Notes: generated by a model from the sequence alone, not told the origin. A stretch of DNA of 64,000 nt from a bacterium (GCA_029945725.1 JAQSDB010000008.1:446710-510709), one strand, 5' to 3'. Positions 4,646 to 31,556 are shown, numbered from the stretch's first letter. Program-made: numbers and translations.

Positions 4646-4646
4646 G

Positions 4647-6506: not shown

Positions 6507-6508
6507 GT

Positions 6509-10516: not shown

Positions 10517-10528
10517 ATGTGCTCCCCA

Positions 10529-12670: not shown

Positions 12671-15600
12671 TACATCCCCTCGTGATGGACGTCTCGGAGC
12701 ATGGACTGAGGGATCGCCGCTTCACTTTCGACAAAGCCCTTGATTACTTCATTTTCAAGCCGAGCTAATAACTTTGCCTTGTCATCTTGGTCATGGGTAT
12801 TGATGAGACTTTCAGCAAGACCTGCAATGCATTCTTTCTGGCCCGGATCGAATGAAGAAGGTATCGGTAGTTGTTCCAGAAAATTCTTCTTGACCTGAGA
12901 AAACACCTTTCCAGACTGCATCGTCATACTCCGATAGATCTCGGTCATCTTGGGGTGGTTTAGAACAGCACAGAGGAAGTGTGCGGATACCCCAACCTTG
13001 GGGATGATGCAAAGAAGAGATTTTTGATGAAAGAAACGGTCACTATCTACGGTGGCGATGATTTGATCGCCTGTTTGCCTGACAAGAATCTTAGGAGACA
13101 CGACATAAGCCTTCTCGTTGACCTTGAGACGACTTTTTGAATCAATTGCGATGTGTTCCTGCTGGATGTCTCTCCAGTTGTTGCGAAGCCATATTCCCTC
13201 AAAATTCAGCGAGTATTTTCCGACATTCCTACCTCGCAGGACCTTGTAGTCGGACGGATTTTCCGCAGCCTGACCTGCATAGAAGACGGCATTTCCCAAA
13301 GCCGCCCTCGAATAATCAATTCCACTGTCAAAAACGTCGGCCAACTCGACCAGCGGCACTGACGCGCCGCTGCTGATGTGCTTCACATTGGCGCCGTGAC
13401 TAAGGACGAAGTTTTTTCGGCCTTTTATTTCCTGGATTGTTTTGAAAGCCCAATCGCTATCTTGCCGTGTTGCTTCTGGCTTGCAGTACCCTTCAAAGGT
13501 ACCAAGGACTATAGGATGTTCTTCGGCAGCAGCGTGCTTATTGATGACTCCGAAGCAGCAGGACTGTGTGACGCCATGGAACATTCCGTCTCCACAGTCG
13601 ATGAACATGATTGGTGAGCGGCTCAACAAAAGCGCTCTGTTATCTCTGCACCCAATATGTTCGAGCAGGCTTGACGGAACGAGAAACGAGTACGTGTTCG
13701 CTGCATTAGCAGTGATTTGATCCATTCTCTCAATGAAAAACTTGAACGAATTGATCAGCTTGTAAGCGGAGTTCGGATATGTTTTCTTCAGATGTTGAGT
13801 GTCTGCTTCCGACAGCGATGCGCCCCATGGAGGATTTCCAAGAGTCGCATCAAACCCCGGAGCAGACGAATAGAAGACTTCTGGAAATTCAAGTGGCCAG
13901 TGAAATGGCCGTCGTGCCGGTCTTCCGAAAGGAAGATCGGCTGAAAGATTGACGGCGGCTCTTCGGCGCATTGACGAGAGTGAATCCAAGGCACCATCAA
14001 CGGCTTGCTCAGCTTGTGCGCTCAACGAAGCAAGTGCGCTTTCGAGTTTCACGCCATTGCCGCCCAATGCGAACACCTCACCAATGAACGCATCGGCGAT
14101 GCATTCTGGCACTTCGAGCATGCGGCGCGCATCGGCGTCCAGATGTGCCATGGTTTCCACGTCGCGAATGTCGCGGATAGGTATCGTGCGAAGACGTGAA
14201 CGCAGTTCAATCGCTTCAAGCACAGATTTTTTAACGTTCTGACCAAACAGACGTAACTGGCCCTGGCGGGCAGGCGTCATTGAAAGTTCGGTGAGTTGAT
14301 CTAGCCGATGGATGCCGAGCAAGCTGTCACCGCAGCGCAGATTGTGGTCGAGGAAGCCAAAGGGGCGACCCTTGGCCAGCGTCACCAACCAGATTGAGAG
14401 CTTAGCGAGCTCAACTGCCAGCGGATTTAGATCGACGCCGTACAAGCAACGCTCAGCGATGAGGCGGCGCGCGATCACCGTTCGCTCCTCACTATCTTGA
14501 GGCAGAGGCTCCTTGACCACTCCAGCTTCCAGAACTTCACCATCCACACTCACGGTTTTGCCCAAGACCTCAACTTGTGACCATGACTCAACGAGGCGAT
14601 CGGATAGCCAGCGGCAGGCCTGCACCAGGAATGCGCCCGAGCCCATGGCCGGGTCGCAGATCTTGAGGTCGAGCAGTTCAGCAGGGGATTTCAGTGCCCA
14701 TTGATCGCGCGGCGTACCCTCTGCCGGGCCGACATAGGCCACTGGCGTGAGAGTCTCGGCGACGATTGCTTCGGTCAGGGATTTCGGGGTGTAGTGGGTG
14801 CCGGTTTCGCGACGGTCGGAACCGGTGGTGACAATGAAGGCACCTGCGGGATAGACCAGTGGATAGCCCCAAGGGTCGGTGCGCAGCAGATGGGCATAGG
14901 GTTTGACGCGGTCGCGGAGCTTGGTGTCGCCCTGGCAAGCGGTCAACAGGCGGTCGGCCAAGGTGTCGTCGACGGGCTTGACTAGATCATTGCGCACCCG
15001 GCTGGCCGAACTGCCAGAGCGTTCTTGCAGCAACTCGGCCAGTCGCGTTGCACCATCCAAGCTAGCCGAATCCAGTTCGGCCAATTTGACCCATGGCATC
15101 TTGGCGCTCTTGGTGGCATCCAGTTCCAGCGTGACTTCATCGGTGCGCTTGACGGTGCGCTCCAGCAAGCCCTCGTAGACGTAGCCGATCTGTTCGACAT
15201 CCAGCGCGCGATAAGACAGCGTGCGCCCTTGGAATTGCTGGATGGCTTCCAGCAACAGCAACACGGTGCGGTTGTCGATAGGCAGCGGCTTGGCTGCATC
15301 GCTGTGCCAGTTCGAGCCTTTGGCCCGGCCCTCGAGGAAGGGGAAGCGGTCGGGATCAAACAGCGAGCCGCCCAAGGCGGGCAGGCGCAGGTTTTCGTGC
15401 TCAATGCCGCCGAACACCGCGCGGAAAATTGCCAGTAGGCGCGACCAGGCATCCCAGCGGCGCTCCAGAATTTCCTCGGATTCCTTGCGCAACTGCATGC
15501 GCAAAGTGGAGAGCGCGTAGTTGGCTTCGTAACGCTCGTCGCCCATCAGCAGCAGGCCACGCTCCTCGGCGGAGAGCAGGAACACCAGGCGCATCATCAC

Positions 15601-16449
15601 CGTCAGCGCGGCTTCATACAGCTCTGGTGCTTTGACGTCGTGCAGGAGTTCTCGATTGCGGTCCTGATCGGCTTTGTCGAGTGTTTGAATCAATACCTCG
15701 ACGGCGCGGCGTACTTGCTCGCCAAGGGCGTCGGTGACTTCGTCTTGGAATTTCAGGGAACGATCGAACAGCGCGGGCAGTTGTTCAGTTTCGTCGACAA
15801 AGAAACGGCGAATGCCGAGCAGATGCACGAAGGCCTGCAGGGTGATGGGCTCTTGGCTCCAAATGCGGGCATACCAACTGGCGAAGGTGGTGACGGCACC
15901 CACCGGGGCATCCACCAGCATCCAGCGCTCGCCGTTGGTCACCAGCCCGAGCCGACAACCCAATGAACGGCACAACTGAACCATGCGATCGGCAGGAGTG
16001 GCGGCCCAGCCGTCTTGTTTCAGCGTGGCATCGAGGCCGACATCCTGCGCATAGATTTGGACCAGCAGCAGTGGCTTGTTGGCGCGTTGCTCATCGACTA
16101 CCGCAAGATCGGGCAACAGCGTCACGCCGTGTTCGGGCAAGTTGGCTTTGAGGTTGGCAGCGCACCAGGCGGCGCGCTTGAGAACGTCGCCTTTGCCGTC
16201 TTCATCAAGCTCAAGGCCCCGTGATAGCACTTCGTTGATCCAAGCCACATGCAACTCGGCGAACTGTGCGTCCTCCAACTCCAGCGCTTCGCGCCATTCC
16301 TCGTAGGCTTGGCGCAGACGTTTGCGCTTGGTGGCATCCAGTTCTTCCAGTCCTTGCGGAAAGGCTTCCTTGAGCACGGGAACGGCGAGGAAGGGGCCGG
16401 AAATCTCGATCAGCGACAGCCAATCATCATGCACGCCGGGAGCACTCAT
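12670..16449 (-). CDS. drmMI: DISARM DrmMI, N6-adenine DNA methyltransferase (Eco57I/PglX-like)
   Basis: HYTP-type motif (GTHYTPKSL), motif I DPAMGSGAFL, motif IV NPPWG (nt 13825-13836). Its ATG overlaps the drmD stop (ATGA). Confidence 0.9.
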   Translation of the reverse strand: MSAPGVHDDWLSLIEISGPFLAVPVLKEAFPQGLEELDATKRKRLRQAYEEWREALELEDAQFAELHVAWINEVLSRGLELDEDGKGDVLKRAAWCAANLKANLPEHGVTLLPDLAVVDEQRANKPLLLVQIYAQDVGLDATLKQDGWAATPADRMVQLCRSLGCRLGLVTNGERWMLVDAPVGAVTTFASWYARIWSQEPITLQAFVHLLGIRRFFVDETEQLPALFDRSLKFQDEVTDALGEQVRRAVEVLIQTLDKADQDRNRELLHDVKAPELYEAALTVMMRLVFLLSAEERGLLLMGDERYEANYALSTLRMQLRKESEEILERRWDAWSRLLAIFRAVFGGIEHENLRLPALGGSLFDPDRFPFLEGRAKGSNWHSDAAKPLPIDNRTVLLLLEAIQQFQGRTLSYRALDVEQIGYVYEGLLERTVKRTDEVTLELDATKSAKMPWVKLAELDSASLDGATRLAELLQERSGSSASRVRNDLVKPVDDTLADRLLTACQGDTKLRDRVKPYAHLLRTDPWGYPLVYPAGAFIVTTGSDRRETGTHYTPKSLTEAIVAETLTPVAYVGPAEGTPRDQWALKSPAELLDLKICDPAMGSGAFLVQACRWLSDRLVESWSQVEVLGKTVSVDGEVLEAGVVKEPLPQDSEERTVIARRLIAERCLYGVDLNPLAVELAKLSIWLVTLAKGRPFGFLDHNLRCGDSLLGIHRLDQLTELSMTPARQGQLRLFGQNVKKSVLEAIELRSRLRTIPIRDIRDVETMAHLDADARRMLEVPECIADAFIGEVFALGGNGVKLESALASLSAQAEQAVDGALDSLSSMRRRAAVNLSADLPFGRPARRPFHWPLEFPEVFYSSAPGFDATLGNPPWGASLSEADTQHLKKTYPNSAYKLINSFKFFIERMDQITANAANTYSFLVPSSLLEHIGCRDNRALLLSRSPIMFIDCGDGMFHGVTQSCCFGVINKHAAAEEHPIVLGTFEGYCKPEATRQDSDWAFKTIQEIKGRKNFVLSHGANVKHISSGASVPLVELADVFDSGIDYSRAALGNAVFYAGQAAENPSDYKVLRGRNVGKYSLNFEGIWLRNNWRDIQQEHIAIDSKSRLKVNEKAYVVSPKILVRQTGDQIIATVDSDRFFHQKSLLCIIPKVGVSAHFLCAVLNHPKMTEIYRSMTMQSGKVFSQVKKNFLEQLPIPSSFDPGQKECIAGLAESLINTHDQDDKAKLLARLENEVIKGFVESEAAIPQSMLRDVHHEGM

Positions 16450-19400
16450 GCTGCACCTCCCTGAGCAGCAGATGCAGGCACCAGAAAGATCACGGCGACC
16501 GGGAAGGTGCGGTCGTTGAGTTTGGCGTAACGGGTTTCGATGGCTTCAGCCTCCTGCTGGCGCTCGGCCGGAATGCGGGCAAGACGCGCTTCCAGTGCGG
16601 CGGTGTCGCGCCGCAACTGTGTTCGCTCATCCTCCGAGAACAGAGAGAACTGTTCTGGTTGCTGATCTTTTTTAAGCTCATTTTTAATAGCGTTTTCCAG
16701 CTCATCAAGCACGGCACTAATGTCGTCAACCTCCTGCTGTTTACGAGCCTGAAGGGTGCTTGTCAGGAATCTGAGTCTGTCTTTAGACCTAGCCTCAACT
16801 GACTGCAGGACGGTGCTTTGTGCACGATCGAAACGAACACGAATGGCATCGAATAGCGAATCTGCGGCGGTCAGCGGCTTGGCTTGATCCAGCCATTGCT
16901 GAACCTTGGTGACCCCCTCTTCTCGACGAAAAGATTTATCCCCCAGATAGCCGCCGGCCACCGTCAGTTCCTCATGAAGGCGATGATGATTTCCACCAGT
17001 AACGACCAATCGCGAGACGACAACTACAGCAGGGCCATCCATCAGCGCATCCGGCACCACACGCACTGTGACGCGATGCAACTTCTTCACATCGTCTTGT
17101 GCCCAGACCTCGGCACGCAGCAATCGGAGGCACATCTGTACCAATCGGTGGTTGAGGTGAACCAGCACTACATCGTCGCGCCCGGTGGCGACGGCATGAT
17201 CGAAGGTGATAGGACGAATTTGAAGTGTGTGAGGATGGCGCAGTCCTTCAAGGCAGCGCGCCCATGAGCCCGACAGCGCGGGCATCTTGAATACGGTTCC
17301 CGCCGGAGCATCAGTCAAGTTGAAAGGCTCGAGCGGCGGGCGGCCTGCCAACTCGAGGCCCGTCTTGACCGCCATGAGGATGTGCTCTGGCGTGAGGTGG
17401 AAATCTTTCTGCGTAGCCAGCAACCGCTCGTGCAGCTTGGCAACCCGGTCTTTCAGTTCACGCTCGGCGCGTACGAAGCGTCTAGCCTTGGCGATCTTGG
17501 CTTCAGCTACGCGAGTGTCGAGGTCCTTGAGCGAGCCTTCGATCAGCCCCGACATCTGCGGCGCTATGACCGGGTTGACGCTGCCCATGTCCGCCCGCAT
17601 GGATTCGAGCTTGCGCAGTGCTCGGATGATGTCGTCACCGTGGCCACCAATGGTTGCTTTGCCTTGTTCGCCGCCATCGACGGGGTGCCAGATCAAGACT
17701 TCTTTCTGACGCTGGCCGTGCCGGTCGATACGGCCATTACGCTGCTCCATCACATTGGGGTTGTAAGGGATCTCCAAGTGGATGAGGCAGTTACAGTGGT
17801 TCTGCAAGTCGATACCTTCGGACGCGGCATCAGTTGCCAGCAGGATGCGGACTGCTGAATCCTTGGGCGAAGCCTGGAAGGCCGCTTTGACTTTCTCGCG
17901 CTCATCCTGCGGCATGCCACCATGAAGAATGGCCAGCCGATCGCCACCAAAATCGTGGCTCGCGAGAATCTCGTGCATCCACTGATGGGTTGTTCGAAAT
18001 TCGGTGAACAAGATCACCCGGCGCTCATTCCAATGACCATCCGTCTTTAAATTGTTCGCGAGCCAGTCGAGGATTGCTTTGGCTTTGGCGTCGACCTGAT
18101 TCTTGGCAGTCTGCGCCCACGATCGTAGCTCGTTCAGCATTTGCTGCTGGTCTGCTGTCAGCGGCTGTGCACGGCGCGATGCCTCTTCAACAGCCTCTGA
18201 CTGGGCATTTTCGACTTCATGGTCGTTGGCATAGTCTTCATCTACCCGGAGGATGGCCTTTCGTAAAATCCGGTCAGCCATCACATCCTTGTCTTTGCGT
18301 TGGCTACCGTTAACCAGGCTGGAAACGTGCTTTTCCAAGGTGGATGCAAAGGCGGCAGGAGAAGAAAAGAGCCGCTTCTTCAGCAGTCGGTTGACGAACG
18401 AGGTGCCGAATGCATTTCCCACCCTCTCTGCATCTTGCTCACGACTCGCGCAATAATCATTCAGCTTCTGGTGAATGACCCGCTCTTGTGCGGAATACGA
18501 GGCCAGCAGCGCTTGCAGCTTACGCTGCGCATAGAGTGGCTTTCCTTCCGCATCAATCAGGTCGCTTTTGAGGCGACGAATCATCACCTGACTCAGCTGC
18601 TTTTCATCCGGCAGGATGTTTCGGGCGAAACGCTGATCGTCCAGCAACTCCAGCAGCGAAGTGAAAGATTCGGTGTAGCCGTTGTGTGGGGTGGCCGTGA
18701 GGAACAGCCGATGCTGAAAGTGCGGACTGATTGAGCGAATGAAGCGTGTACGCTGGCTCTCCAGCGCGTAGTTCGCACCAGCAGCGGGGGCGATGTTGTG
18801 TGCTTCGTCGACCACCAGCATGTCGAACTTGCGCGGGTAGCTGGTGTGTGCGGGCAGGACGTCGCGCATGGCGCGCAGTCCTTCGCCGCTTTTGACCCAG
18901 TCCATGGACGCAATCAGGCGTGGATGCGAAGTCCAGGGATTAGCGTGGATGCCGCGATCTCGGCGTAACTGCTTGATGTAGCTCGTATCGACAACTCGGA
19001 AATCAAGACCAAACTTTTCCAGCATCTCCACGCGCCACTTCTCTTGCAGCGATGCTGGGCAAATGATCAGAACAGTTCGAGCTCGATGCCGCAGCAACAT
19101 CTCCTGAATGACGAGACCAGCCTCAATGGTCTTGCCCAAGCCGACGTCGTCAGCGATGAGCAGATTGACGCGAGCCATGTCGATGGCACGCACCAGTGGG
19201 TCGAGCTGAAAATCCTCAATGCTGACACCGCTGCGGAACGGCGCTTGCAGGAATCCCCTATCGGCATTGGTCGCCGCACCCCAACGAACAGCGTCGAGAA
19301 AGGCTTCGAGTGTGTCAGAGTCGTCTTGGCCGGTAATCGAGGGAAGCCCCGCACGCTCAATAATTTGCGCACCGGGCTCAATCTCCCAGATGACCTCAAG

Positions 19401-19613
19401 TTCCTCGCCTAGGCCATCCTCGTCAATTGAACTTAGCTTAACCAAGCTCTCAGGTGCTTTCAGCGTGTACTTGGATAAAGGCTCTTCTACTAAAAAGCCA
19501 CCAGCGCCAAGAGAAGAGTAATTAACATCAGCCACAACCCATTGCCGTCGACGCACCTCAACTAGCTGCCCAGGCTCTGGCGACATACCTATCTGCTGCA
19601 AGTCCTTTTCCAT
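16446..19613 (-). CDS. drmD: DISARM DrmD, SNF2-family helicase
   Basis: SNF2 motifs LIADDVGLGKTIEAG, VVDEAHNI, LFLTATPHNG, helicase-C LLATDAASEGIDLQ. Confidence 0.9.
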   Translation of the reverse strand: MEKDLQQIGMSPEPGQLVEVRRRQWVVADVNYSSLGAGGFLVEEPLSKYTLKAPESLVKLSSIDEDGLGEELEVIWEIEPGAQIIERAGLPSITGQDDSDTLEAFLDAVRWGAATNADRGFLQAPFRSGVSIEDFQLDPLVRAIDMARVNLLIADDVGLGKTIEAGLVIQEMLLRHRARTVLIICPASLQEKWRVEMLEKFGLDFRVVDTSYIKQLRRDRGIHANPWTSHPRLIASMDWVKSGEGLRAMRDVLPAHTSYPRKFDMLVVDEAHNIAPAAGANYALESQRTRFIRSISPHFQHRLFLTATPHNGYTESFTSLLELLDDQRFARNILPDEKQLSQVMIRRLKSDLIDAEGKPLYAQRKLQALLASYSAQERVIHQKLNDYCASREQDAERVGNAFGTSFVNRLLKKRLFSSPAAFASTLEKHVSSLVNGSQRKDKDVMADRILRKAILRVDEDYANDHEVENAQSEAVEEASRRAQPLTADQQQMLNELRSWAQTAKNQVDAKAKAILDWLANNLKTDGHWNERRVILFTEFRTTHQWMHEILASHDFGGDRLAILHGGMPQDEREKVKAAFQASPKDSAVRILLATDAASEGIDLQNHCNCLIHLEIPYNPNVMEQRNGRIDRHGQRQKEVLIWHPVDGGEQGKATIGGHGDDIIRALRKLESMRADMGSVNPVIAPQMSGLIEGSLKDLDTRVAEAKIAKARRFVRAERELKDRVAKLHERLLATQKDFHLTPEHILMAVKTGLELAGRPPLEPFNLTDAPAGTVFKMPALSGSWARCLEGLRHPHTLQIRPITFDHAVATGRDDVVLVHLNHRLVQMCLRLLRAEVWAQDDVKKLHRVTVRVVPDALMDGPAVVVVSRLVVTGGNHHRLHEELTVAGGYLGDKSFRREEGVTKVQQWLDQAKPLTAADSLFDAIRVRFDRAQSTVLQSVEARSKDRLRFLTSTLQARKQQEVDDISAVLDELENAIKNELKKDQQPEQFSLFSEDERTQLRRDTAALEARLARIPAERQQEAEAIETRYAKLNDRTFPVAVIFLVPASAAQGGAA

Positions 19614-19665: not shown

Positions 19666-20706
19666 CTACTCTGCTTTTATATTTTTGATATGAATTTTTA
19701 TGCTCTTGCCAATAGCGCGTCCTAGGTCAACAGGCACTGCGTTACCAATTAAACGGCCCAACGCCTTGAAATTAACAGGCTGGCCTGTGGACAAAAACTT
19801 GTAAGTCCTTGGAAAGCTCTGGAGTATCGCTGCTTCCCTCAGCGAAATGGCTCTATCCTGTTCAGGATGCCCAAAGCGGCCATTACCAAAGCCAAAACAT
19901 TGCGTTGTCATTGTGGGAGCCGGCTTATCCCACTCCATTCGGCCATAAACGCCAGCATATGTTTTTCCACTTTCAACGCGGTGACATGCCGCCACTAAAC
20001 TCTCGGGCCAGTCTCTCCATGTACCACCGGGCTTAGAAACACGAATGCGTCGAAGATTAGTATCCGAAAGCGTTGCAGACACATGCAACTTGTCACGCTC
20101 ATATGCCTCACCAGCACTAAGCGGACGCAGTCGGCCAATTGCTTGGCGAACCGTTTTAGGCTTTTCTCTAATTGGAGGAATGAGCTGCAACTTTCCATGC
20201 TTTGACGCAAGCAAAACCGTTCGACGACGTGACTGAGGAACGCCATATTTCGAGCTATCAACGACATCAAACCAGACGGTATAGCCCAAGCGCTCAAGCC
20301 CTTTCGAAAAATCCTTGAAAACCTTGTGCTTCACAACGGTGGGAACATTTTCCATTGTGACAATGTCGGGCTCGGTACCCTTAACCAATCGGAAAAATTG
20401 ATACAGAAGCCCCCACCTTGAATCGTCATCATCAGCATAGCGCTGTGCATAGGTTGAAAATGGCTGACATGGCGCACAGCCAGCCAATACTTTTATGTCG
20501 GCATCGCCAAAGAGCTCTATGAGCTCCTTACTCTTTACTTTGCTGATGTCTTTGTTCAGAAATTTGGCTTGGTTGTTTGATTCATAGGGAAATTTGCAGG
20601 CTGGATCCAAATCAATACCAGCTGCGACAGAAACGCCCTCAAGGTGTAGACCGTGGGTCAACCCCCCCACCCCACAAAACAAATCAATACAAGAAATGGT
20701 TTTCAT
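19666..20706 (-). CDS. DNA cytosine-5 methyltransferase (possible DrmMII-type partner of the DISARM locus)
   Basis: All canonical m5C motifs are present: I DLFCGVGG, IV APCQPFS, VI ENV, VIII QSRRR, X GNAVPV. It ends 52 nt upstream of drmD. Its GC is visibly lower than its neighbours. Confidence 0.95.
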   Translation of the reverse strand: MKTISCIDLFCGVGGLTHGLHLEGVSVAAGIDLDPACKFPYESNNQAKFLNKDISKVKSKELIELFGDADIKVLAGCAPCQPFSTYAQRYADDDDSRWGLLYQFFRLVKGTEPDIVTMENVPTVVKHKVFKDFSKGLERLGYTVWFDVVDSSKYGVPQSRRRTVLLASKHGKLQLIPPIREKPKTVRQAIGRLRPLSAGEAYERDKLHVSATLSDTNLRRIRVSKPGGTWRDWPESLVAACHRVESGKTYAGVYGRMEWDKPAPTMTTQCFGFGNGRFGHPEQDRAISLREAAILQSFPRTYKFLSTGQPVNFKALGRLIGNAVPVDLGRAIGKSIKIHIKNIKAE

Positions 20707-20824: not shown

Positions 20825-20853
20825 AGAAAAAAGCCCACCAAATGGTGGGCTTT
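20825..20853 (-). terminator. rho-independent terminator (reads on minus strand)
   Basis: Stem AGCCCACC / GGTGGGCT (20832-20839 / 20844-20851), 4-nt loop, followed on the minus strand by T6. It lies between the DruE-like gene and the C5 methyltransferase. Confidence 0.6.
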
Positions 20854-20987: not shown

Positions 20988-21012
20988 AAAAGACCGCCAT
21001 TGACGGTCTTTC
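20988..21012 (-). terminator. weak hairpin immediately after the DruE-like stop codon
   Basis: AGACCG / CGGTCT stem (20991-20996 / 21004-21009), extendable with A-T pairs, 7-nt loop, TTTT on the minus strand. Confidence 0.35.
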
Positions 21013-21018
21013 TCTTTT

Positions 21019-24000
21019 TCACGTCACGACACAGGTCGACGCTATACCCCTTTCACTATGAGGCAGACTTCTTAGCAGCGTCCTTGGGGCGCCGATCCCC
21101 CAGCCCACCTGAGGCAGGGAGGCCTGTCCATCAAGTTCAGCCCAGCCAATGCACCCCCTGCCTGTGACGACCTCGGCACAAAGCTCCGCACCTCTGCCGT
21201 CGAGCTTGACCTCTCCCATCGACAGGATGGCCCCCACCGCAGCAGCAAGCTGCGTCAGCGCATCACGATTTTCCTTGCTGCAAAGTTCCCAGACAGCTTT
21301 TCGAACAATGATGCTGACAAGAACTCCTTGGCCGCACCAGCGCCTTACCCATGCATCAAGCCCTGATTGCGATACCTGCCATGAGCCAGGATCTCCATTC
21401 AAAAAAATCCGGAGTGCTTTCACGTCCGGCATCGCCAACTCGCGACTGATAGCCTCGGCAAGGGACTGATGCTCGGCCTGGGTATCCGTACCAAACACCC
21501 ACTGCGCAGCATGCCAGAACCTGTCCTTGACCCATCCACGACCAATCAACTGCAATGCCCCATGACGATTCAAATCGTCGGCACGATATCGAGTATCAAA
21601 AGTTTGCAAGCAGCCAGAACACGACGTCTCGCAATGGCGTGGACACTCCAAAGCCTGCCTCGTGTAATGCAGAAACTCGGTCATGCGCTGCGTCAAGCTC
21701 GATACATAGCCCGAGGGCTGGACATCGTAGAGTGATAAGGCAAAGCCGCCGCCCTCTTTTGTTGGAAGCCACTTCACCTCACAAGCAATTTCAGTGAGCT
21801 CAACCCCCAACATACTGGCGACTGCCTTTCGCATAGCCATCGACACGGTGTATGCAACGGTTTTATCAGTGATGAGCTTTCCCTCGAAGCGCAAGAAAAC
21901 CTCCAGCACATCCGTCTTGTAGTAATGACCCAATCGGATGTTCGGCCGTATCCGGCCATTGCTGGCAGCGCCCTCACACTCCGGATGATCCAGCGACTTC
22001 GCCCCCCTCAAGGGATGGTGAGGACGCTGGAAAACTGCCGGCCACTCACCACGCTCCGTCATTTCCTCTGAGCGCCCACACTCAAGACACACCGCAAATC
22101 CCTGCTGGTTGGCACCCGACGTGTAATGAAACACCGCCCCTTCTGCAGTCGCTCGGAAATGCCCCCATTCCGGCATATCCAATAGCCGCCATTCGCCCGA
22201 TGCAGATATCCAGGGTGCCTCGACCGGTACAAAGCGCTGGGCGTGGAGATCATTGTGCGGTGTTGAAAAGAGACTCACCGCAAAGCCCTGCGGCTCCAGA
22301 CACGTGATCTGCAAGGGATCGTCATTGACGCCCGTGCGATGCAGTCGCTCACCGCAACTTCCACAAGGGGTATTCAGCAAGCCAGCGACTTGTCGCGTCA
22401 CTGTTCCGCACGCCTCACAGCGCGACATCTCGATAAGACACTGAAGACCCAGTGACTCATCTGGCCGCGACGTAATGGCAGGAGGCTTCCAATTTGGCAG
22501 CAAGCCCGCTGACCGGTAGACAAGACCATCCAACACCACCTCCGCCCCAGGCGCATATTCAATTAACCCCATGCGCGCGTCACGGCGTGGCAACTCACGA
22601 TGCCCCTGAGCCGCCAATGCAAACAGTTTCCGTCCACGCGGCAGTGAGGCAATACTCAGCGTTTCAAATCGCATGACATGAACCGGAAAACCATGCCCTG
22701 GCAAAAAGCCCGCTTTGACCAGTGCCGTTAGCAAAGGCTCGCTCAACACTCCTTGCTCTTGCGTCAGCAGCGTTGCTTGCGAATCCCGGGAGTGGGTCGT
22801 GGTCACGGTGCGTAAATTGCGTAAATGCTGAATCGTCTGCTGCAGTGGCGCATACGCGTTGAACCATTGGCCACCAAAGGACTGATAACACTCAAGCACG
22901 CCTCTCACCCTTGCCGACACACCGAGATGCTCCAAGCAGGTCCCCTGTATCAGGATCTGCAGCATCTGCTCCACTTCCCTGTCCACCGCCTCGATCTGCT
23001 GACGCAACCACGACATGAAGGCCTCCGACGGGGAGGCCTCCTCCGGCAGCATCCATGCGCCGACATTCACTTTGTGCAATTGGCGAGACGTTACCCTGCC
23101 GCTTTGCAGAAATTGAGACAGGAGCAAAGAGTTGACGTGACGCTGCACCAGCATCGGACTGGAGAATGATACCGTCGGCGGTGCCAGCGGCGTCACAAAG
23201 GGCCACAGTGGATTGGCAAGCACCGCCTGATCGTGCGGGTTGTTCTTGCACAACGTGAAGGCCAATGACCGCGTTTCACGCCGGCGCCCGGCACGACCCG
23301 CTCGCTGTAGATAATTGGCTGGATGGGGTGGCACATTGTTCATGGCAACCACGGAGATACCACCAATGTCGATGCCCATTTCCATGGTGGTGGAGCAGCT
23401 CAATACATTGCTCTTGCCCTGGCGGAATTCAGCCTCGTATTTGCGGAGTTGTGCTGCTGTTTGCTGCGCCGAGTGCTCAACGATTTTGAAGTACGGCACC
23501 TCGTCGAGGATGCGATCATGCTCATCCGTCCACACGCCTTCCTGTCGCAGCAGTTGCACGGATGCATCTTGCTGCAACCACTCCGCGACATCCTCAGACG
23601 ACCGCTCTTCCAACGCCTTTCGCAGGCTGCCGGTCAGCGCCGGAAAATGCAGCTGCTGGCAAACATAGCTGGCCTCGCGCCTCACGGTTTTCGGCAGACA
23701 AGGAGTCATGCCTCTGAGCGTGACATCCAGCAGCTGCCCCGTTACCGGACAACGCCAGACCTGATGTGGCAACGAGAACGCCATGTCCTCCGGATCCAGC
23801 GCCCAAGCCTCCCCCTGCTTTTTCAGCAAGCCGATTCGCGTCAGCTCCGTAAAAGCCTGCTCCAGATACCCGTTGACGATCGCCCGATCAGAATCCGTGT
23901 AGAGATTAAGATTCAGCGCAGAGGCCAGGATCCGTACCAAGCGGGATCGACTCTGGGCGCCCATATGAACGAAAGGCCAAGATACATGCCGGCCGTCCAT

Positions 24001-26634
24001 TACCTGATTTTTCACTCGCGGCGCCATCAGCGCCTTGGCAGGCAGACGTGTGCCACTCCAAGAGTCCCACGACCTCGGCAACAGCAAGGCCAAGCGCTGA
24101 CGAACAAAGAAATCCAACGCAATTTTCAGAAAGTCGCGCCACTCCGAAAGACTCATGCGGGCATCGCGCTCACCCAGACGCGGAGCGGCTTGTACCCGCT
24201 CCAACTTGGGATACACCACGGACACTAACCCTAAGGTTTCGAGGTTGTTGTGCCCGACTGGGCGCACGGCAAACTCCCGAAGCAACAGCAGTCGTGCTAC
24301 GGCGCACGCCCCATTCAGGGCATCAAATGTACCTGCATCCTTGTCACGATACTGTGGCTGTATAAAAGACTGCAGCTCAGGCTGCTGACTCAGCCATGTC
24401 TCCATCTGTTGAAAAGACACACTGGCCGGCGCCTGTATTTTTGCCAGGATGGCTTCATTACTGGTGATCGCCTGCTGGATTATTGCCTTCGCACTATCAG
24501 GCACGTGCTTCAATCGTTCGCGAAGGGTTTCGATTTGGAACATCCGCGCCTGCATGTCATCCGCGACGTTCTCACGTGACGCCTGCGCAACCTGCCGGTA
24601 CACCTGAGACTGCAGCCAGTGCCGTTCGGCTTTCTGCTGACTGTGGAGAGCAAAGCGGGCCGTTCCCTGGCGGCTGTCCGTAAAAGTCAGCAACCGCCGT
24701 CCCTTATAAGGAAGCAAGACGCCGTCTCCAACAACCTTCGGATAGTCCGGCGCATATTTCAGTAAGGTGGGCAGCAGAAGTTCTTGAAAAAATGGCGCCC
24801 CCAGCCGCATTGATCGCAACTTGGGAGCATCAACCGGTGACTCTACGCCACAAGAACGGCAGCAAAAGGATCTGCGCCTATCCAACAGATCCGCCTGCAG
24901 CGTTACTGTCTTGGCAAACGCTCTGCCGTTCTGCAAATAACTGTCGGCCTCCCAAAATGTGATTGGCTTAGCGAGCGCGTGAGGCTTCGTAATCAGCAGC
25001 GGCGACCACCTCGTTTGCAGATCTCCTGCCACGGGCCGCTCAACGTCCGCTACAACATCGACCTCATGGGCGTAGTCGTCCTCTTTCGCGGCGAACTGAC
25101 GAGCCAACAATTCACCCTGCAGCTCACGCCACTCTGCCCACAGATAAATCTCGTGGCACTGCATACACGTTCGGATCTCGTACACCGGCGCACGGCAATC
25201 ACAGGCGCGACGTGCTTCCTTATAGACCCGGCCAAAAGGCCAGGCGGGATCATCCAGTACCGTTCCTCTTCGTCCATAACACGACGGGTTGCTGCAGGCC
25301 CACAACCCCTCCAGGACATCATGAAAGGCATGCAGCCGAAGCGGTAAGAAAGGCGTTCCGTCTTCATCACGAGCACTGGACAACAGATCCAGCCATTGCA
25401 GCATCTGATGGCGACTCACCGTGTCGCCAGCTTCGTCCGCCATAACTTCAACAAGGGAGGTCAAAGTCTGGGCGTTGTTAGCGTGGGGCATCAGAAAAGC
25501 ATCGCGAATACGCTGCGCGATCTTGTTGGCACACAGCGCGCGGTAGAGTCTTTTCGAAGGGGAGGCCGGTAAGGCCATGAGCTCGTCATACGAAGCATCC
25601 GCATAACGAGACTGAGTCTTGGGCAATGTCGGCACGGCGCGTTGAGCGCATACCACATGCACGCGATCCAAAGGCAATCCGGCTACTGTCGCCAGAAAGC
25701 GCTGCAATTGTCGCTCAGCACCGTCACCTCCCATGGAGGCCGACGTCGCCACGAAATGCACCTCTTCAGAGCGCACGCCAAACGCCAGCATGATGCGGCG
25801 CAATAGCAGCGCCAGTTCTGCTCCTTTGGCGCCCGCATAGGTGTGGGCCTCATCCAGCACGATCCAGCGCAGCTTGCCTTGAGAGGCCTGCAGGATGGGC
25901 GCATCCTCGGCACGAATCAGCATGTACTCGAGCATCGTGGGATTGGTCACCAGCACAGGCGGTGGTGAATAGCGCAGAGACTGCCGGTCATGAACCTGAC
26001 TGTCCGTAACAACAACGTGCGGCCGGTCATCTACCTCCGGCGTGCTGCCGTTGTACAAACAAAACCGGACAGCCCCTCCCAACGAAGTAGTCCAGGCATG
26101 AAGCCGTTCACGCTGGCTGGCGATCAAGGCATTCAATGGATAGATCATCAGGGCTCGCACCCCGACTAGGGGCTCGTCGCTGGCTTCATGCTCGCGCACC
26201 AGCGCATCCAGCATCGGCAGCATGAAACATTCCGTTTTGCCGGAGCCAGTCCCTCCACTGACCACCACAGACTGTGGCGTGGGATCCACCAACCACTCCC
26301 ACGCACAGAGCTGATGCTGATACGGGTGAACGTCCCGGCCGAAACGATAGGGATGCGCCTCATCTCCACCGGGGGCATCCAAGGCCCCCAGCAAAGTTGA
26401 TGACAACAAGGTCGGCGATAGCGTCTGCAGGGTCGGCTCCGCCGCTCCCCAGCCAAACACCGCCTCAAAGACAGGATCACCCAAGAAGCCGGTCAACGCC
26501 TGACCGTCTGCCATTAGTGCCTGATGCAGCATGGCCCGCAAAGGGCCGTTTTGAATATGGAGTTGGCGCAAGGCGGCTTGCGTTGAGCGGCGAGCGATAT
26601 CGAGCAACAACGCGGAGAAATACTCACGGCTCAT
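21019..26634 (-). CDS. giant DEAD/DEAH helicase fused to DUF1998 (DruE-like), 1871 aa
   Basis: Motif [15 protein letters not shown], motif [10 protein letters not shown], helicase-C MEMGIDIGG and QRAGRAGRR, multiple CxxC zinc-ribbon clusters, C-terminal DUF1998-type [16 protein letters not shown] 26634 overlaps the upstream stop (ATGA). Confidence 0.85.
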
Positions 26635-27605
26635 GATGCGCACTCACCGTGGCTAATCGACGGCAGTCCATGCGCCAGGGCGATTTTGACGCCCTGGCTA
26701 TAGGCCACCTGGAACCAGATAGGATCGAAGGCATGTACAGTCATCACTTGGTGCATACGTCCTTGTCGACGCCACCAGCCCATGGCAATGCCAGACGCCG
26801 CCCAGATCCCCATAAGCAATGGAAGATTAACGACGGTGGCTTTGTAATCATCGGGTTGCGGCCAGAAAACCCCCTGATCAGAGTCATCCAGAGCAGCCGT
26901 CATCCGAGTAGCCAATGATTCCGGTACACGCTTCCGGAAGGCGGCCAATGCGCGCTTGCCGATCAGAGAGGAAGGCCATATCTCTGCCGGGCCATGAGTC
27001 CTCAACAGCACACGTTGCAACAAACTCCCCTCCCCCTGCCGCCATGCGGCGACAAGGAGAGCAGGCGCCTGATCTCGGGCAACGTCCACGATGGATGCGG
27101 GCAGGGCTCCCAGATGGCGAAACGCCATCCAGTCCATGGGAACGGCCAACACAGGCAAAGCCTCACCAAGAAAACTCAGGCGACCTTGGAGGGACAGGAT
27201 CGCTTGAGCGTCACCGTCACCCAACAAGCTGATCCACATGGAGCGATAATTCGCTACCGCCCCCTCCCAGACAGAAAGGGGCAGAGCCGCCCAATACGTC
27301 GTCAGCGCCGGATGAAGCACACGCTTCGCCTCTGCCTCAGATAACCGGAGTGCCGCCAGCGCCAAAAACTCAGCGTGGCTGAAAATGAAATGAATCGTTG
27401 GATCGATGGCGCCAGCCTCTGGGCTGAGTTGGCTCATGGCCTCGTCTACCGCATCCCACTCAGAGTACAAGCAGTCAGCAGCCAGACGAGCCAGCAGCGC
27501 CTCTGACCAGGCACCACTGCTGAAGGGTCGGATACCGGTGACAGGATCTGAAGGACTGACCTGCGGATCCGCATCACTAAGGGAGCACAGCGAGGTTGTC
27601 GTCAC
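26631..27605 (-). CDS. orphan protein of unknown function (324 aa), partner of the DruE-like helicase
   Basis: GTG start 2 nt after the alpA stop; its stop overlaps the helicase ATG. No recognisable motif. One hydrophobic stretch, [21 protein letters not shown], is followed by RRQGR. Confidence 0.7.
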
Positions 27606-27607
27606 GA

Positions 27608-27886
27608 TCAGGCCTTGCGCTGCTTTTCAAGCCAGGCGAGGACTTCGTCCAGGAAGTAGCCGGTTGAACGTGCCCCCAAGCGGATTTTCTTGGGCCAGGT
27701 CGGATCAAAACGAGGAGACTTGGGATTTTCTTTATCGGCGCGCGTGGAGTCAGGGATACCCGTAAGTTTGCGCATATCCTTGGCACGAACAATGACGCGA
27801 GCAGCGGGAAGAGACGCTACCGCTGCCTGAGCAGGGAGCGGGGATACAGAAGCAGCGGGTTCGCTGCTGGATTTATCAAACGTCAT
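27608..27886 (-). CDS. alpA: AlpA-family (phage/island) transcriptional regulator or excisionase-like protein
   Basis: C-terminal 60 aa match the AlpA/MerR-like HTH pattern (VIVRAKDMRKLTGIPDSTR ... KIRLGARSTGYFLDEVLAWL). It has a 30-aa Ala/Ser/Pro-rich N-terminal extension. Confidence 0.8.
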   Translation of the reverse strand: MTFDKSSSEPAASVSPLPAQAAVASLPAARVIVRAKDMRKLTGIPDSTRADKENPKSPRFDPTWPKKIRLGARSTGYFLDEVLAWLEKQRKA

Positions 27887-28034: not shown

Positions 28035-29345
28035 TTAATTTTTGGGGCGTAACCGGTTGAAAGGAGCATTATCCGGCCTGACAAGAACTGCCGCCGTCTT
28101 TTTTAACTCCACCAATTTCGCCAATCCCGATATTGCTCCGACTCCGTTGAACCAATCAGCAATCGCTTTTTCATACAGAGCCTCCTCGTGCATTCCCTTC
28201 CGATAAGAGCGCCCCTGACAAGCAGCACCCCACAGATCTATCAAGTCTTGCAACATGGCCGCTCGATAAAGAGGGGCCTTACTCTTCGGAGGATTCAACT
28301 TTTCATCATGGAAGATCATACGTGCGGCACGTGTCGCATGCGTTTTGGGGAAGCCGAAGCTGTACTCCAAGTACACTGCCACTTTTTCAGCCGAGTTGAA
28401 TTTGGCTGCCTTGATCGGATTGAAATCACCCCACAACTCAAAAGCGACGTCATCAAGCAGAGACAGACAACTCGAGCGGTTTTCATGTGAATGAAACGGC
28501 TCCTTATCTTGGCGGCTTGAAACTCTGCCGATCTCAGCATCACGCAGCAACTGCAACTCCGTTGCAGCTATCATCAAGTCATCATTTCTTATAGTTAACC
28601 CACCATTAACCCTATCAAGATCTATATCGAGCCCATCATTAGCTTCAAACTCAGCCAATGCATAAAAACAAGGCACTCGCTGGGGCCGCAGAAATTTTCC
28701 CAGAGGCTGAAATGAGTATCTTTCTTTCCGCGCCAGAATTGACTTGACCGTATCTGAGAAGTCCGGAGGAGGATTGGATGAAAAACCTCCATCCCTCGCA
28801 AGAAGGTAACTCCCAAAGAACTTCTCTCGGAAAGCTGATCCTGCGCTTTCGATACGAGCACAGTCTTCTTTCTCGACAAGGAGATAATCAACCCGATCTA
28901 GTGCCCGCATGAGCCGTGAAAAATTCGATTTATCGCTAAAATAAGGAGGCCTGAACTTAGCCTCCATGATGGAGGCCAAGCTCACCGTCGTACGTTCCTG
29001 AGGGACTGCAATGCAGAGCCTTACCTTTCCTAGCGCGGCGTAATGAAGCAACTGTACATCTGTGATCAGCACCGACTGTGCACCAGCAGACACTGAATAC
29101 ATCAAGGGAGCTGGGGGAGCATTCACTCCGACGACAGGACCGGATGTAACGCCCATGCCCTCAGTCGCTACACCCTTGCCGGATGCACCTACCGGCTTCG
29201 CCAACCAATTCCTGATCGTCTGCTCCGATACATCATATTCCTGTGCAAGCAGTGAAACCGGCACCCCTTCTTCCCGATGCCGCTTACATGCCTTTTCAAT
29301 ATCCGCCTTCGAATGCCTCTTTTTTCGCGTTGACGAAACAGCCAT
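28035..29345 (-). CDS. HTH-domain protein of unknown function (436 aa from ATG 29345)
   Basis: N-terminal transposase-type HTH (ADIEKACKRHREEGVPVSLLAQEYDVSEQTIRNWL); the rest has no motif I recognise. ATG 29345 follows a GGGGTGGA RBS; the track ORF starts at TTG 29360. GC looks low. Confidence 0.7.
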   Translation of the reverse strand: MAVSSTRKKRHSKADIEKACKRHREEGVPVSLLAQEYDVSEQTIRNWLAKPVGASGKGVATEGMGVTSGPVVGVNAPPAPLMYSVSAGAQSVLITDVQLLHYAALGKVRLCIAVPQERTTVSLASIMEAKFRPPYFSDKSNFSRLMRALDRVDYLLVEKEDCARIESAGSAFREKFFGSYLLARDGGFSSNPPPDFSDTVKSILARKERYSFQPLGKFLRPQRVPCFYALAEFEANDGLDIDLDRVNGGLTIRNDDLMIAATELQLLRDAEIGRVSSRQDKEPFHSHENRSSCLSLLDDVAFELWGDFNPIKAAKFNSAEKVAVYLEYSFGFPKTHATRAARMIFHDEKLNPPKSKAPLYRAAMLQDLIDLWGAACQGRSYRKGMHEEALYEKAIADWFNGVGAISGLAKLVELKKTAAVLVRPDNAPFNRLRPKN

Positions 29346-29533
29346 TCCACCCCATCCCAAAAGTCAGCCTAAATACGGCCCACCTTACTATGCAAAAACA
29401 GGCTCATCTTGAAATTATAGCCAAAAGAGGCCAAGCCAAACGCAGGCAATGTCTTATCGGGTCGCCGCCATATCTTCTTGCGCAATCCACCTCATGCGCT
29501 AAGCCGCTCACCCTCAACAGCAATCCTAGCATC

Positions 29534-29591
29534 GGGGGTTTTCCTGAGTACACGATTTTCACGTTTAGCGCTGTTTTCAAGGAAAACCCCC
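29534..29591. repeat. 11-bp perfect inverted repeat with 36-nt loop
   Basis: GGGGGTTTTCC (29534-29544) and GGAAAACCCCC (29581-29591). Confidence 0.8.
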
Positions 29592-29653
29592 TGCCAGCCC
29601 ATTTAAAAACAACCCTGATCCTCCAGCACACTAAAGCCCGTTCTGGCGATTAA

Positions 29654-29678
29654 CTTCCTTATATAAATCATAAGGAAG
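29654..29678. repeat. 9-bp perfect inverted repeat with 7-nt spacer
   Basis: CTTCCTTAT (29654-29662) and ATAAGGAAG (29670-29678), in AT-rich non-coding DNA. Confidence 0.8.
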
Positions 29679-29772
29679 CGCGTTAGACACTAGCAATTAT
29701 CTCGCGCCATCTAGAACCGAACCCTCGACGTTAATTCGGGGCGCCGTCAGCAACGATGCCGGCAACTTATTT

Positions 29773-29792
29773 TTATGAAATAAATTTCATAA
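29773..29792. promoter_or_regulatory. 20-bp perfect palindrome (operator-like)
   Basis: TTATGAAAT aa ATTTCATAA. The shape suits a dimeric DNA-binding protein. It lies between the HTH gene and the integrase. Confidence 0.6.
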
Positions 29793-30356
29793 TGACTTCA
29801 ATTAGTTACCGCCCTCTTTAATAGCCTCAGTCTTCCCCACATTGCTCCACAATACGACGCAATGATACCCAACAGCCAATCTGATTGAGCAATTTCCAAG
29901 CACTCTTAACCCACCACAAAACCCCGCCATGAACCACAAAGTACAAAGCCTCATGACGGTAACTTTATCGGCATTTTTCTATTGAAATCCGATTCTCTTC
30001 TTATGCATTAATCCAACAAGCAACAATCATTTTCGTAGACGGAAGAAGAACGTGAAAAAAATCGTAGGACGTGCATGGAATTCCAGCCAAGAAAATTTGG
30101 CTCTCGTATTGAACCAGAACAAAAAGTTCCTACGCATCTCCGATGATTAACACGACACTTTGTTTATTTTTGTAACTGATCCGACATTTTTTCATAATCC
30201 GCAATAACAACGGCGCGCAACCATCACCCAGCACGTGCAAGAAGCTCCAAAATGGCTAGACATTCCGAAATCTTCTCGCTCATTTACTATCTGATGACAC
30301 CTTGAAGACGTCCCTCAAAGCCGCCTTCACCACTTGCCTTCTGGAGAATAAATGTC

Positions 30357-31556
30357 ATGCCATTGACGAACACCGGGATAAAATTTCTGAAAGCCAAAGA
30401 CCGCGACTACAAAGTGGCGGATGAAAGGGGTTTGTTTCTACTTGTGATGGCAAACAGCACAAAGTGTTGGCGTTTTTCGTATCGTTACGACAACAAGCAA
30501 AAATCTCTCTCCATGGGCATCTACCCCGACACCTCGCTCAAGCTAGCCCGAGAAAAGCGTGATGAGGCCCGACAGACTCTGGCGCAAGGCATGGATCCGT
30601 CTGCTGTCCGAAAAGAACTAAAAGCCATTCAGAGTGGCAAGGCAAAGAACAGTCTGAACATCATCACGGCCTATTTTTTGGATATGAAGAAGACAGAGTG
30701 GAATCCTGCCTATTTCAGTAAGGTGGAGGCCAGACTGAAAAAGGACGTGCTTCCCGCACTGGGCACGATGCCGATTACCGACATCAAAGCTCCCGATATT
30801 TTGCGCGTCCTCCACAAAGTGGAAGCCCGTGGGACCATCGAGTCTGCTCACCGCATCAAAGAGACGCTGAGCCAAATCTTCCGCTATGCCATAGCAAGCG
30901 GCCTGGCGGACAAAAACCCGATCCCTGACCTGGCCGGCGCCCTGCGCCGCGCCAAAGAAAAGCACATGGCTGCTATCACCGACCCGGAGCAAGCCGGCGA
31001 CCTTCTCCGCCAGATCGATGCCTACCAAGGCACCTTCCCGGTAATATGTGCACTGAAGCTGGCACCCCTGGTTTTTGTCCGGCCCGGTGAGTTACGACAG
31101 GCCGAGTGGGCCAACATTAACTTTGAATGCGCGGAGTGGCGCTTTAAAGCCAGCAAGACTTACCAGGACCACATTGTCCCGCTCTCGCGCCAAGCTGTGG
31201 CTATTCTCAAGGCCCTGCAGCCCTATACCGGTCATGGCCGCTATGTCTTTCCCAGCAACAAGTCCGATGCACTCCCCATGAGCAGCAATACGATATTGTC
31301 CGCTTTACGGGTCATGGGTTTCGAGAAGGACAAAATGAGCGGGCATGGTTTCAGAGCCATGGCCAGAACCATGATCGCAGAGCGTCTTCGCTATCCCGAT
31401 GTGGCGATTGAGCTTCAACTGGCGCACCAGGTTCGTGACATTCATGGTCACGCCTATAACCGGGCCAGCTTTCTGGATGACCGGAAGCGGATGATGCAGG
31501 AGTGGGCCGACTATCTGGATAAGCTGAAAAGGGACGAGACTGGCCTTCACTCCTGA
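30357..31556 (+). CDS. int: P4-type tyrosine integrase (DUF4102 arm-binding domain + catalytic domain)
   Basis: N-terminus MPLTNTGIKFLKAKDRDYKVADERGLFLLV is typical of DUF4102. Catalytic residues: R in VRPGELR, HGFRAMARTM (HxxR), HGHAYNRA (H..Y). GGAGA RBS. Confidence 0.95.
   Translation: MPLTNTGIKFLKAKDRDYKVADERGLFLLVMANSTKCWRFSYRYDNKQKSLSMGIYPDTSLKLAREKRDEARQTLAQGMDPSAVRKELKAIQSGKAKNSLNIITAYFLDMKKTEWNPAYFSKVEARLKKDVLPALGTMPITDIKAPDILRVLHKVEARGTIESAHRIKETLSQIFRYAIASGLADKNPIPDLAGALRRAKEKHMAAITDPEQAGDLLRQIDAYQGTFPVICALKLAPLVFVRPGELRQAEWANINFECAEWRFKASKTYQDHIVPLSRQAVAILKALQPYTGHGRYVFPSNKSDALPMSSNTILSALRVMGFEKDKMSGHGFRAMARTMIAERLRYPDVAIELQLAHQVRDIHGHAYNRASFLDDRKRMMQEWADYLDKLKRDETGLHS

Follow-up and report, generated by a model that had tools for sequence, protein, structure and literature searches.

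A candidate mini-variant of Druantia type III headed by an AlpA-like gene in a bacterial defence island

In Druantia type III-A (E. coli ATCC 8739, EDL933 and ECOR19, and P. aeruginosa), a DruH protein of about 1100-1200 amino acids (aa), composed of an N-terminal helical domain, six immunoglobulin (Ig)-like domains plus a C-terminal helical domain, is encoded directly upstream of the DruE helicase, with overlapping stop and start codons; DruE itself carries a helicase core, an MZB module and two C-terminal PLD-like domains, and in type III DruE the first PLD is predicted to be inactive and the last active (10.1101/2025.09.15.676423; PMC13192584). In Druantia type III-B (M. smegmatis MSMEG_1253/1254; representative GIH50614.1), a full-length DruH of 1132 aa is paired with a shorter DruE of 1667 aa without PLD domains, and this two-protein system has been shown to defend (PMC13316683; 10.1101/2025.09.15.676423). 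Here we analyse a stretch of 64,000 nucleotides (nt) from a bacterial metagenome-assembled genome (MAG; GCA_029945725.1, JAQSDB010000008.1:446710-510709; henceforth the window), in which a minus-strand operon joins an AlpA-like gene, a gene for a 324-aa protein and a gene for a giant DruE-type helicase. On the basis of sequence and profile comparisons, we consider it fairly likely that this locus is a rare, conserved and unannotated mini-variant of Druantia type III, not a new class of system. The literature searched held no description of a DruH reduced to its C-terminal domain, nor of a Druantia system coupled to AlpA.

The genes of the module and the signals that follow it are:

27886..27608, minus strand: alpA, encoding an AlpA-like small winged helix-turn-helix protein of 92 aa (stop codon TGA at 27610-27608); it heads the coupled operon
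26631..27605, minus strand: open reading frame (ORF) of 324 aa with a GTG start at 27605, henceforth mini-DruH
21019..26634, minus strand: druE, 1871 aa, with an ATG start at 26634
28035..29345, minus strand: HTH436 gene, encoding 436 aa with an N-terminal helix-turn-helix (HTH); probable fourth gene of the cassette
20989-21011, minus strand: first hairpin, AAAGACCG-N7-CGGTCTTT, with an 8-bp stem and a 7-nt loop, 8 nt past the DruE stop codon
20853-20830, with a T-run to 20827, minus strand: second hairpin, AAAGCCCACC-ATTT-GGTGGGCTTT then TTTT, intrinsic-terminator-like

The stop codon of alpA and the GTG of mini-DruH are 2 nt apart, and the TGA of mini-DruH overlaps the ATG of druE as ATGA (26631-26634); an earlier reading of the sequence by eye (henceforth the initial annotation) had reported this coupling, and our ORFs confirmed its coordinates, gap and overlap. 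Both hairpins that it had placed between the module and the methyltransferase gene downstream were also found. The minus-strand T-run of the first is weak, and the second (20827-20853) is predicted to be a good minus-strand intrinsic terminator, which would end the operon ahead of the C5 methyltransferase gene. A sigma-70 scan upstream of alpA found no promoter. For HTH436 the ORF call began at TTG 29360, and we adopted the first methionine at 29345, in agreement with the public entry MDI1302520.1. The cassette measures about 8.3 kb if counted as four genes and about 6.9 kb as three, and its exact proteins are deposited from the MAG in GenBank (MDI1302517-20) as a DEAD/DEAH box helicase, a hypothetical protein, an AlpA family phage regulatory protein and a hypothetical protein.

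The DruE-type helicase and its 324-residue partner

The giant protein matched the PADLOC DruE3 profile (PDLC00037) with 1848 bits (E=0; residues 2-1855 on profile positions 2-1829 of 2055), while the DruE1, DruE2 and DruE4 profiles scored it far lower, and phmmer aligned its residues 5-1850 with 11-1871 of the solved E. coli DruE (PDB 9tu7, 2108 aa; E 4e-274). Among Pfam families we found DEAD (75 bits), Helicase_C (51 bits) and, slightly below its cutoff of 24.2, MZB/DUF1998 (23.4 bits). All of the motifs cited in the initial annotation are present, i.e., an 11-residue helicase motif containing GSGKT (127-137), VLDEAHTY (259-266), MEMGIDIGG (1084-1092), QRAGRAGRR (1110-1118) and a 13-residue DUF1998-type signature (1664-1676), together with six CxxC pairs. 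Its proposal of a DruE-type helicase with DUF1998 agrees with the DruE3 match, and we identify the protein, on this profile evidence, as a predicted Druantia type III DruE, that is, an SF2 helicase of YprA/MrfA-like type that carries an MZB (DUF1998) zinc module. The same pairing of a YprA-family helicase with an MZB/DUF1998 module is found in DrmA/DrmB of the DISARM system encoded in the window (4647-10516); DISARM, however, splits helicase and MZB over two proteins and adds a methyltransferase, an SNF2 helicase and a PLD nuclease, and is a separate system (the window DruE gave only 32 bits against the DrmA profile).

In a C-terminal alignment, the DruEs of the window and of two related loci (L001 and L009) end where the second PLD-like domain (H-x-R motif) of DruEs of 2093-2105 aa starts. 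The end of the window protein is equivalent to about residue 1871 of the 2108 residues of E. coli DruE, meaning that it has about 237 residues fewer. It is thus predicted to retain the helicase and MZB module together with the first PLD-like domain, the one predicted to be inactive, and, since it ends before the last PLD, the one predicted to be active in type III DruE, to be without the terminal PLD nuclease domain.

Scans of the 324-aa partner found no Pfam family. In profile comparisons, the mini-DruH profile aligned with a profile of full-length DruH (16 DruH/YjiT proteins, two E. coli types included) at an hhalign probability of 100% (E 3.6e-50; residues 34-316 on columns 870-1154 of 1190). 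Searching 1.84 billion representative proteins with a profile built from the protein and its five close homologues gave 87 matches. Several of these are short (268-330 aa), a few have 550-870 aa, and about 40 have 1076-1223 aa and align solely via their last 250-290 residues or so. Curated profiles matched it weakly and at their C-terminal ends: PADLOC DruH3 with E 2e-8 (residues 183-311 on 912-1031 of 1036) and NCBIfam YjiT_fam with 28.9 bits against a cutoff of 150 (residues 36-303 on 844-1087 of 1090). The protein covers about 12-19% of the DruH3 profile and would fail the curated cutoffs. These comparisons indicate that the partner corresponds to DruH's C-terminal alpha-helical domain alone, without the N-terminal domain and the six Ig-like domains. 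In the P. aeruginosa DruE-DruH-fork structure, obtained by cryo-electron microscopy (cryo-EM), DruH meets the DruE stalk through its C-terminal helical domain, and this domain is reported to break up the DruE dimer on forked DNA (10.64898/2026.05.13.724313); given this contact we refer to the 324-aa protein as mini-DruH, i.e., a DruH that would keep only the DruE-docking domain.

The initial annotation had seen no known Druantia partner at the locus and had compared the small protein with DruD in size. The second idea found no support, and the homology to DruH, although confined to the C-terminal domain, runs against the first and in part against the proposal that was built on it. It had also suggested a membrane anchor in a hydrophobic stretch (residues 258-278; best 19-residue Kyte-Doolittle mean 1.58). 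An AlphaFold2 (AF2) model of mini-DruH (predicted local distance difference test (pLDDT) 80, predicted template-modelling score 0.81) is all-alpha, and the stretch forms helix 256-271 of this fold, within the block most conserved between mini-DruH and DruH; N260, P262, W277 and W278 are invariant. We rejected a membrane anchor because the helix lies inside a confident globular fold and the block is conserved in DruH, which in its canonical form is soluble (it was purified and its structure solved by cryo-EM). Of the checks that the initial annotation had named, the PADLOC profiles thus returned a clear DruE3 and a weak DruH3 match, and a Foldseek search of the mini-DruH model against the PDB (entries to April 2026) gave no match better than E 0.7. 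PDB sequence searches with the mini-DruH profile and with the C-terminal domain of full-length DruH found nothing; the deposited DruH chain 9tud_A was recovered solely by the full-length DruH query. Mini-DruH reaches none of the curated thresholds and its public entry reads hypothetical protein, an annotation blind spot by which such loci are likely counted as orphan DruE helicases in defence-system censuses.

Compared with the described subtypes, the locus has the core features of Druantia III, namely a DruE3-type helicase with MZB/DUF1998 and a DruH homologue immediately upstream in the same operon. It resembles III-A in the helicase core, MZB module and first PLD-like domain of DruE, in the overlapping stop and start codons of the two genes, and in the homology of the partner to the C-terminal helical domain of III-A DruH. 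By contrast with III-A, its DruH has 324 aa and not the full three-part architecture, its DruE has one and not two C-terminal PLD-like domains, and it has an AlpA-like lead cistron and an upstream HTH436 gene, neither of which was seen at loci with full-length DruH. With III-B it shares a DruH-DruE pair whose DruE is without an active nuclease domain; however, III-B has a full-length DruH and no PLD, whereas the window DruE keeps the first PLD-like domain, and by this domain content the locus does not appear to fit III-B.

Recurrence of the module and selection on its genes

Our survey of species genomes (185,579) and metagenomes gave 32 DruH-like loci, and in all of those with downstream sequence a DruE homologue lies directly next to the DruH-like gene. 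Outside the window we found thirteen mini-DruH loci, representing about seven independent lineages, and all have the identical gene order AlpA, mini-DruH, DruE, with gaps of -20 to +5 nt between the first two genes and -4 to +7 nt between the last two. Since this order recurs in 13 loci outside the window, the coupling of the three genes exceeds chance. The pairing with a small partner, whose co-occurrence in other genomes the initial annotation had proposed as a check, is conserved elsewhere, and its proposal of a non-canonical, minimal Druantia-like module led by AlpA is supported. Close homologues of mini-DruH (64-79% identity, 325-327 aa) were preceded by an AlpA-like gene and followed by druE in every contig recovered, and the arrangement is unchanged in divergent mini-DruHs with 23-36% identity to that of the window (P0008, P0014 and P0092).

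Lengths are also consistent across the lineage. Mini-DruHs range from 291 to 327 aa and the complete DruEs paired with them (window, L001, L008 from a Noviherbaspirillum MAG, and L009 from Agitococcus lubricus) from 1870 to 1881 aa, whereas at the 14 loci where both genes are complete and DruH is full-length, a DruH of 1120-1237 aa is paired with a DruE of 2048-2203 aa, with no AlpA. At one locus (L048, 10892-16483) the mini-type DruE was called as 1676 aa with a separate 148-aa ORF, which could be a frameshift, an assembly error or a naturally split C-terminus.

In a neighbour-joining tree of the first 1250 DruE residues, nine mini-type DruEs were monophyletic in 200 of 200 bootstraps and formed the sister group of DruEs paired with full-length DruH; the tree is small, is rooted on E. 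coli III-A and has proteobacterial comparison DruEs and no III-B sequence. In the tree so composed the window DruE groups with the proteobacterial DruEs paired with full-length DruH; type III-B is defined in part by a separate DruE branch. Within the mini-type clade DruE identity falls to about 50%, and the cassette persists in hosts of widely differing G+C (AT-rich Agitococcus in L009 versus 56% in the window). Pairwise ratios of non-synonymous to synonymous substitution rates (dN/dS) were 0.19-0.25 for mini-DruH, 0.16-0.20 for DruE and 0.07-0.15 for AlpA. We conclude from these comparisons that one ancestral reduction appears to have given rise to a stable, selected lineage.

The initial annotation had also considered a remnant of a larger system, which in its most explicit form would be a decaying canonical III-A locus whose druH was 5'-truncated by insertion of an island alpA and whose druE was 3'-truncated. 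Truly decayed Druantia III loci do exist. In Thauera phenylacetica (L014, 9965-10414) a 149-aa DruH stub lies beside a DruE of 2149 aa; in a metagenomic locus (L016/L026, 895-3047) a 268-aa DruH-like ORF is accompanied by a DruE interrupted by an IS256-family transposase; and E. coli K-12 yjiT/yjiV is, like the window, a Druantia III locus with an incomplete DruH. K-12, however, keeps the N-terminal 505 aa of YjiT together with a pseudogenised DruE, which is real decay, whereas the window keeps the C-terminal end, intact and under selection. Both boundaries of the reduction recur in the independent mini-type lineages, the reading frames are intact with their start/stop overlaps kept, identities of 23-79% and differing G+C exclude recent copies of one element, and the monophyly and divergence of the DruE clade and dN/dS values near 0.2 for both genes speak for deep conservation under purifying selection. 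We thus regard decay as extremely improbable.

A side observation concerns exchange within the lineage. Relative to L006 the window has 79% identity in mini-DruH and 63% in DruE, and relative to L001 it has 68% and 75%, respectively; these mosaic identities suggest recombination between modules inside the mini lineage.

The AlpA-like and HTH436 proteins and a possible mode of action

The window AlpA scored 23.0 bits against Pfam Phage_AlpA (PF05930; cutoff 21) and its homologue in L009 27.9 bits. Every mini-DruH found has directly upstream of it an AlpA homologue, with 69-92 aa and, in the alignment, 58-79% identity, and the subfamily shares the core GIPDSTRAD.E.PKSPRFDPT.PKKI.LG.RS.GY. HTH436 matched Pfam HTH_Tnp_1 over residues 12-55 only (25 bits); it gave no NCBIfam, PADLOC or PHROG family, and scans with Pfam, PADLOC, NCBIfam and PHROG recognised no nuclease domain in it. 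Full-length homologues of HTH436 (27-32% identity, E 1e-34 to 1e-68) occupy the same strand and position upstream of AlpA in L009, L044 and L045-47; a gene of this type (419-436 aa) is kept upstream of AlpA in four divergent lineages, and the module probably comprises four genes rather than three. It is missing from the closest relatives of the window (L001, L002, L006 and L008), which have an unrelated, divergent gene of 360-404 aa instead, and in L048 the region upstream of AlpA is disrupted by insertion sequence elements. The replacement genes located are:

L001 1294-2376, opposite strand: no Pfam family, transcribed divergently from alpA
L002 8347-9561, opposite strand: no Pfam family, transcribed divergently from alpA
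L006 2245-3432, opposite strand: no Pfam family, transcribed divergently from alpA

The replacement proteins of L002 and L006 are 54% identical to each other, and in these closest relatives the intergenic region between alpA and the divergent gene holds conserved hairpins. The idea that HTH436 is a split-off N-terminus of DruH was rejected (hhalign probability 0.2%, and no similarity to any part of DruH).

Proteins of the AlpA family are classically island or prophage excision regulators, and many mini-type loci adjoin integrases. This raises the possibility that the functional system is mini-DruH and DruE only, with AlpA and HTH436 forming the backbone (excisionase or regulator) of a P4-type island in which the defence genes are the first cargo. 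In the window, alpA and a P4-type integrase gene are about 2.5 kb apart, and such integrases also lie near the module in L001-L008 and L044; the module persists in L001, L002, L006 and L008 even though an unrelated gene replaces HTH436; and the window sequence upstream of alpA, in which we sought a conserved operator, does not align with that of these same four loci. However, AlpA stays coupled to mini-DruH down to 23% mini-DruH identity, including in L009 and L048, where no integrase was found near the cassette (in a search covering about 6 kb upstream in L009 and 10 kb to either side in L048), and among the other mini-type loci the strand and distance of the integrase vary. These two loci and the variable integrase orientation argue that AlpA, like HTH436 in many cases, moves with the helicase pair and not with one island backbone. 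We found this AlpA subfamily with no other cargo, in a weak search that reached plasmids only via HTH436 and mini-DruH and IMG/VR via the AlpA alignment; plasmid searches with mini-DruH and HTH436, and IMG/VR searches with mini-DruH, AlpA and HTH436 alignments, found no relatives. Taken together, we hold the cargo explanation to be possible but rather doubtful.

To place the mini-variant in a mechanistic context, we draw on canonical systems, in which the 3'-to-5' DNA helicase DruE assembles into an autoinhibited or asymmetric dimer and engages substrates containing single-stranded DNA (ssDNA), and DruH is required for defence. Five studies from 2026 disagree on the role of DruH (ATP-gated ssDNA sensor, 3'-5' exonuclease or scaffold) and on whether defence requires the PLD nuclease. 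The PLD domains of DruE were found to be dispensable for defence against Bas26 (10.64898/2026.05.13.724758), and the PLD-less DruE of 1667 aa defends M. smegmatis together with full-length DruH, blocking phage DNA circularisation and replication (PMC13316683). By analogy, mini-DruH and DruE would be translated from one operon with the AlpA-like DNA-binding protein as its first cistron and probable transcriptional regulator, and HTH436 may act as an accessory regulator or sensor. Mini-DruH would bind the DruE stalk and govern the switch between autoinhibited dimer and active monomer; DruE, whose own substrate preference would give discrimination, may load on ssDNA-containing intermediates of phage replication or recombination; and ATP-driven unwinding, not degradation, would block phage replication, as the window DruE, like the PLD-less DruE of M. 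smegmatis, is predicted to be without its own nuclease site. A naturally selected lineage with DruH's C-terminal domain alone and no active PLD would bear directly on the dispute over DruH and PLD. If the cassette defends, the minimal essential core would consist of a helicase and a domain that binds its stalk; both the N-terminal/Ig sensor and the nucleases would then be lineage-specific additions or replaceable.

Several points weigh against a functional mini-variant of Druantia type III. Deleting or mutating the N-terminal domain of DruH abolishes defence in E. coli and P. aeruginosa (10.64898/2026.05.12.722862; 10.64898/2026.05.13.724313; PMC13192584), from which a C-terminal-only DruH is predicted to be non-functional unless compensated. 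In P. aeruginosa DruE the PLD-site residues D1740, D1917 and R1918 are essential, their mutants losing defence (10.64898/2026.05.13.724313), and the later ones fall in the domain that the window DruE lacks. The ssDNA/ATP residues R1031, H1062, R1064 and K1067 of E. coli DruH correspond to Q197, D252, Y254 and T257 in mini-DruH and are thus not conserved, in a mapping that used the O145/ECOR-type C-terminal domain and an alignment that is weak in that half. The lineage is also rare, being found in two species genomes among the 185,579, the MAG of the window and metagenome contigs, which is a small sampling (word-index protein searches likewise gave very few relatives); the integrases adjoining many of the loci mean that AlpA could belong to an island backbone; and the literature searched contains no experiments on any member of the mini lineage.

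Either the mini lineage needs no N-terminal domain of DruH, or AlpA and HTH436 compensate for it, the second of which we think improbable. A related possibility is a three- or four-component system in which the AlpA-like protein, HTH436 or both are subunits that replace the N-terminal/Ig modules of DruH (DNA recognition) or the nuclease. The three reductions do co-occur with two added genes, both of which carry DNA-binding HTH domains, AlpA is coupled to mini-DruH by its stop and start codons, and AlpA is more conserved than mini-DruH. On the other hand, HTH436 has neither detectable similarity to DruH nor a recognisable nuclease domain, and its single-sequence AF2 model (pLDDT 41) is unusable beyond the N-terminal HTH; the closest relatives (L001, L002, L006 and L008) lack it; and a small HTH gene heading an operon is more simply explained as a regulator. 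We consider replacement subunits unlikely. The same holds for the fullest version of this idea, a four-component Druantia in which DruH is reduced to its DruE-docking domain, the N-terminal exonuclease of DruH and the active PLD are both absent, and the AlpA-like protein and HTH436 are obligatory sensor or effector partners, a scheme to which we give little credence. If true, the core of Druantia III immunity would be the helicase together with DruH's C-terminal domain, the nuclease being dispensable or supplied in trans.

The surrounding defence island

The left 31.6 kb of the window form a defence island with a P4-type integrase at its border. Besides the module it contains:

30357-31556, plus strand: P4-type tyrosine integrase, at the right end of the island
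19666-20706, minus strand: C5 cytosine methyltransferase, between DruE and DrmD (type II methyltransferase 292 bits, DrmMII 290, DruM2 246)
3884-19613, minus strand: complete class 1 DISARM, with DrmD (16446-19613), DrmMI (12670-16449), DrmA (6509-10516), DrmB (4647-6545) and DrmC (3884-4645)
10529-12670, minus strand: KAP-family P-loop NTPase of 713 aa (PADLOC PifA 382 bits), inserted between drmMI and drmA
2022-3830, minus strand: GmrSD-type (HEC-05) type IV restriction gene
245-1776, plus strand: island backbone genes, a Gp3-like recombination directionality factor and RadC/JAB, at the left edge

The backbone genes at the left edge imply that the island extends past the start of the window.

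This context bears on a further explanation, namely that the helicase module serves a mobile element (in replication, transfer or AlpA-controlled excision) rather than anti-phage defence. In favour of such a role, the surroundings of the module are always those of a mobile element or a defence island, it is led by AlpA and it has no nuclease. However, DruE (over its full length) and mini-DruH are homologous to experimentally validated defence proteins, the window module sits in a defence island beside DISARM and GmrSD, and no replication-initiator features were found, and we thus judge this explanation to be very unlikely compared with a mini-variant of Druantia type III.

We rejected the C5 methyltransferase as a DruM, as the type II methyltransferase and DrmMII profiles score above DruM2 and the two hairpins separate it from druE; it is more likely a DISARM-associated or solitary methyltransferase. 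In the other mini-type loci with an examined downstream flank (L001, L009 and L048), druE is not followed by a methyltransferase gene. Since none of the methyltransferase, DISARM and GmrSD genes follows the module in these three loci, we regard them as its neighbours and not its parts.

At the right end of the island, an integrase in L002 that is 84% identical to that of the window adjoins rpmB-rpmG-mutM, and no tRNA genes were found in the window; a site other than a tRNA may serve for attachment. The stretch of about 1 kb between HTH436 and the integrase (29346-30356) contains only short ORFs of 136, 75 and 50 aa with no family match; regulatory sequence or a small gene missed by annotation may lie there.

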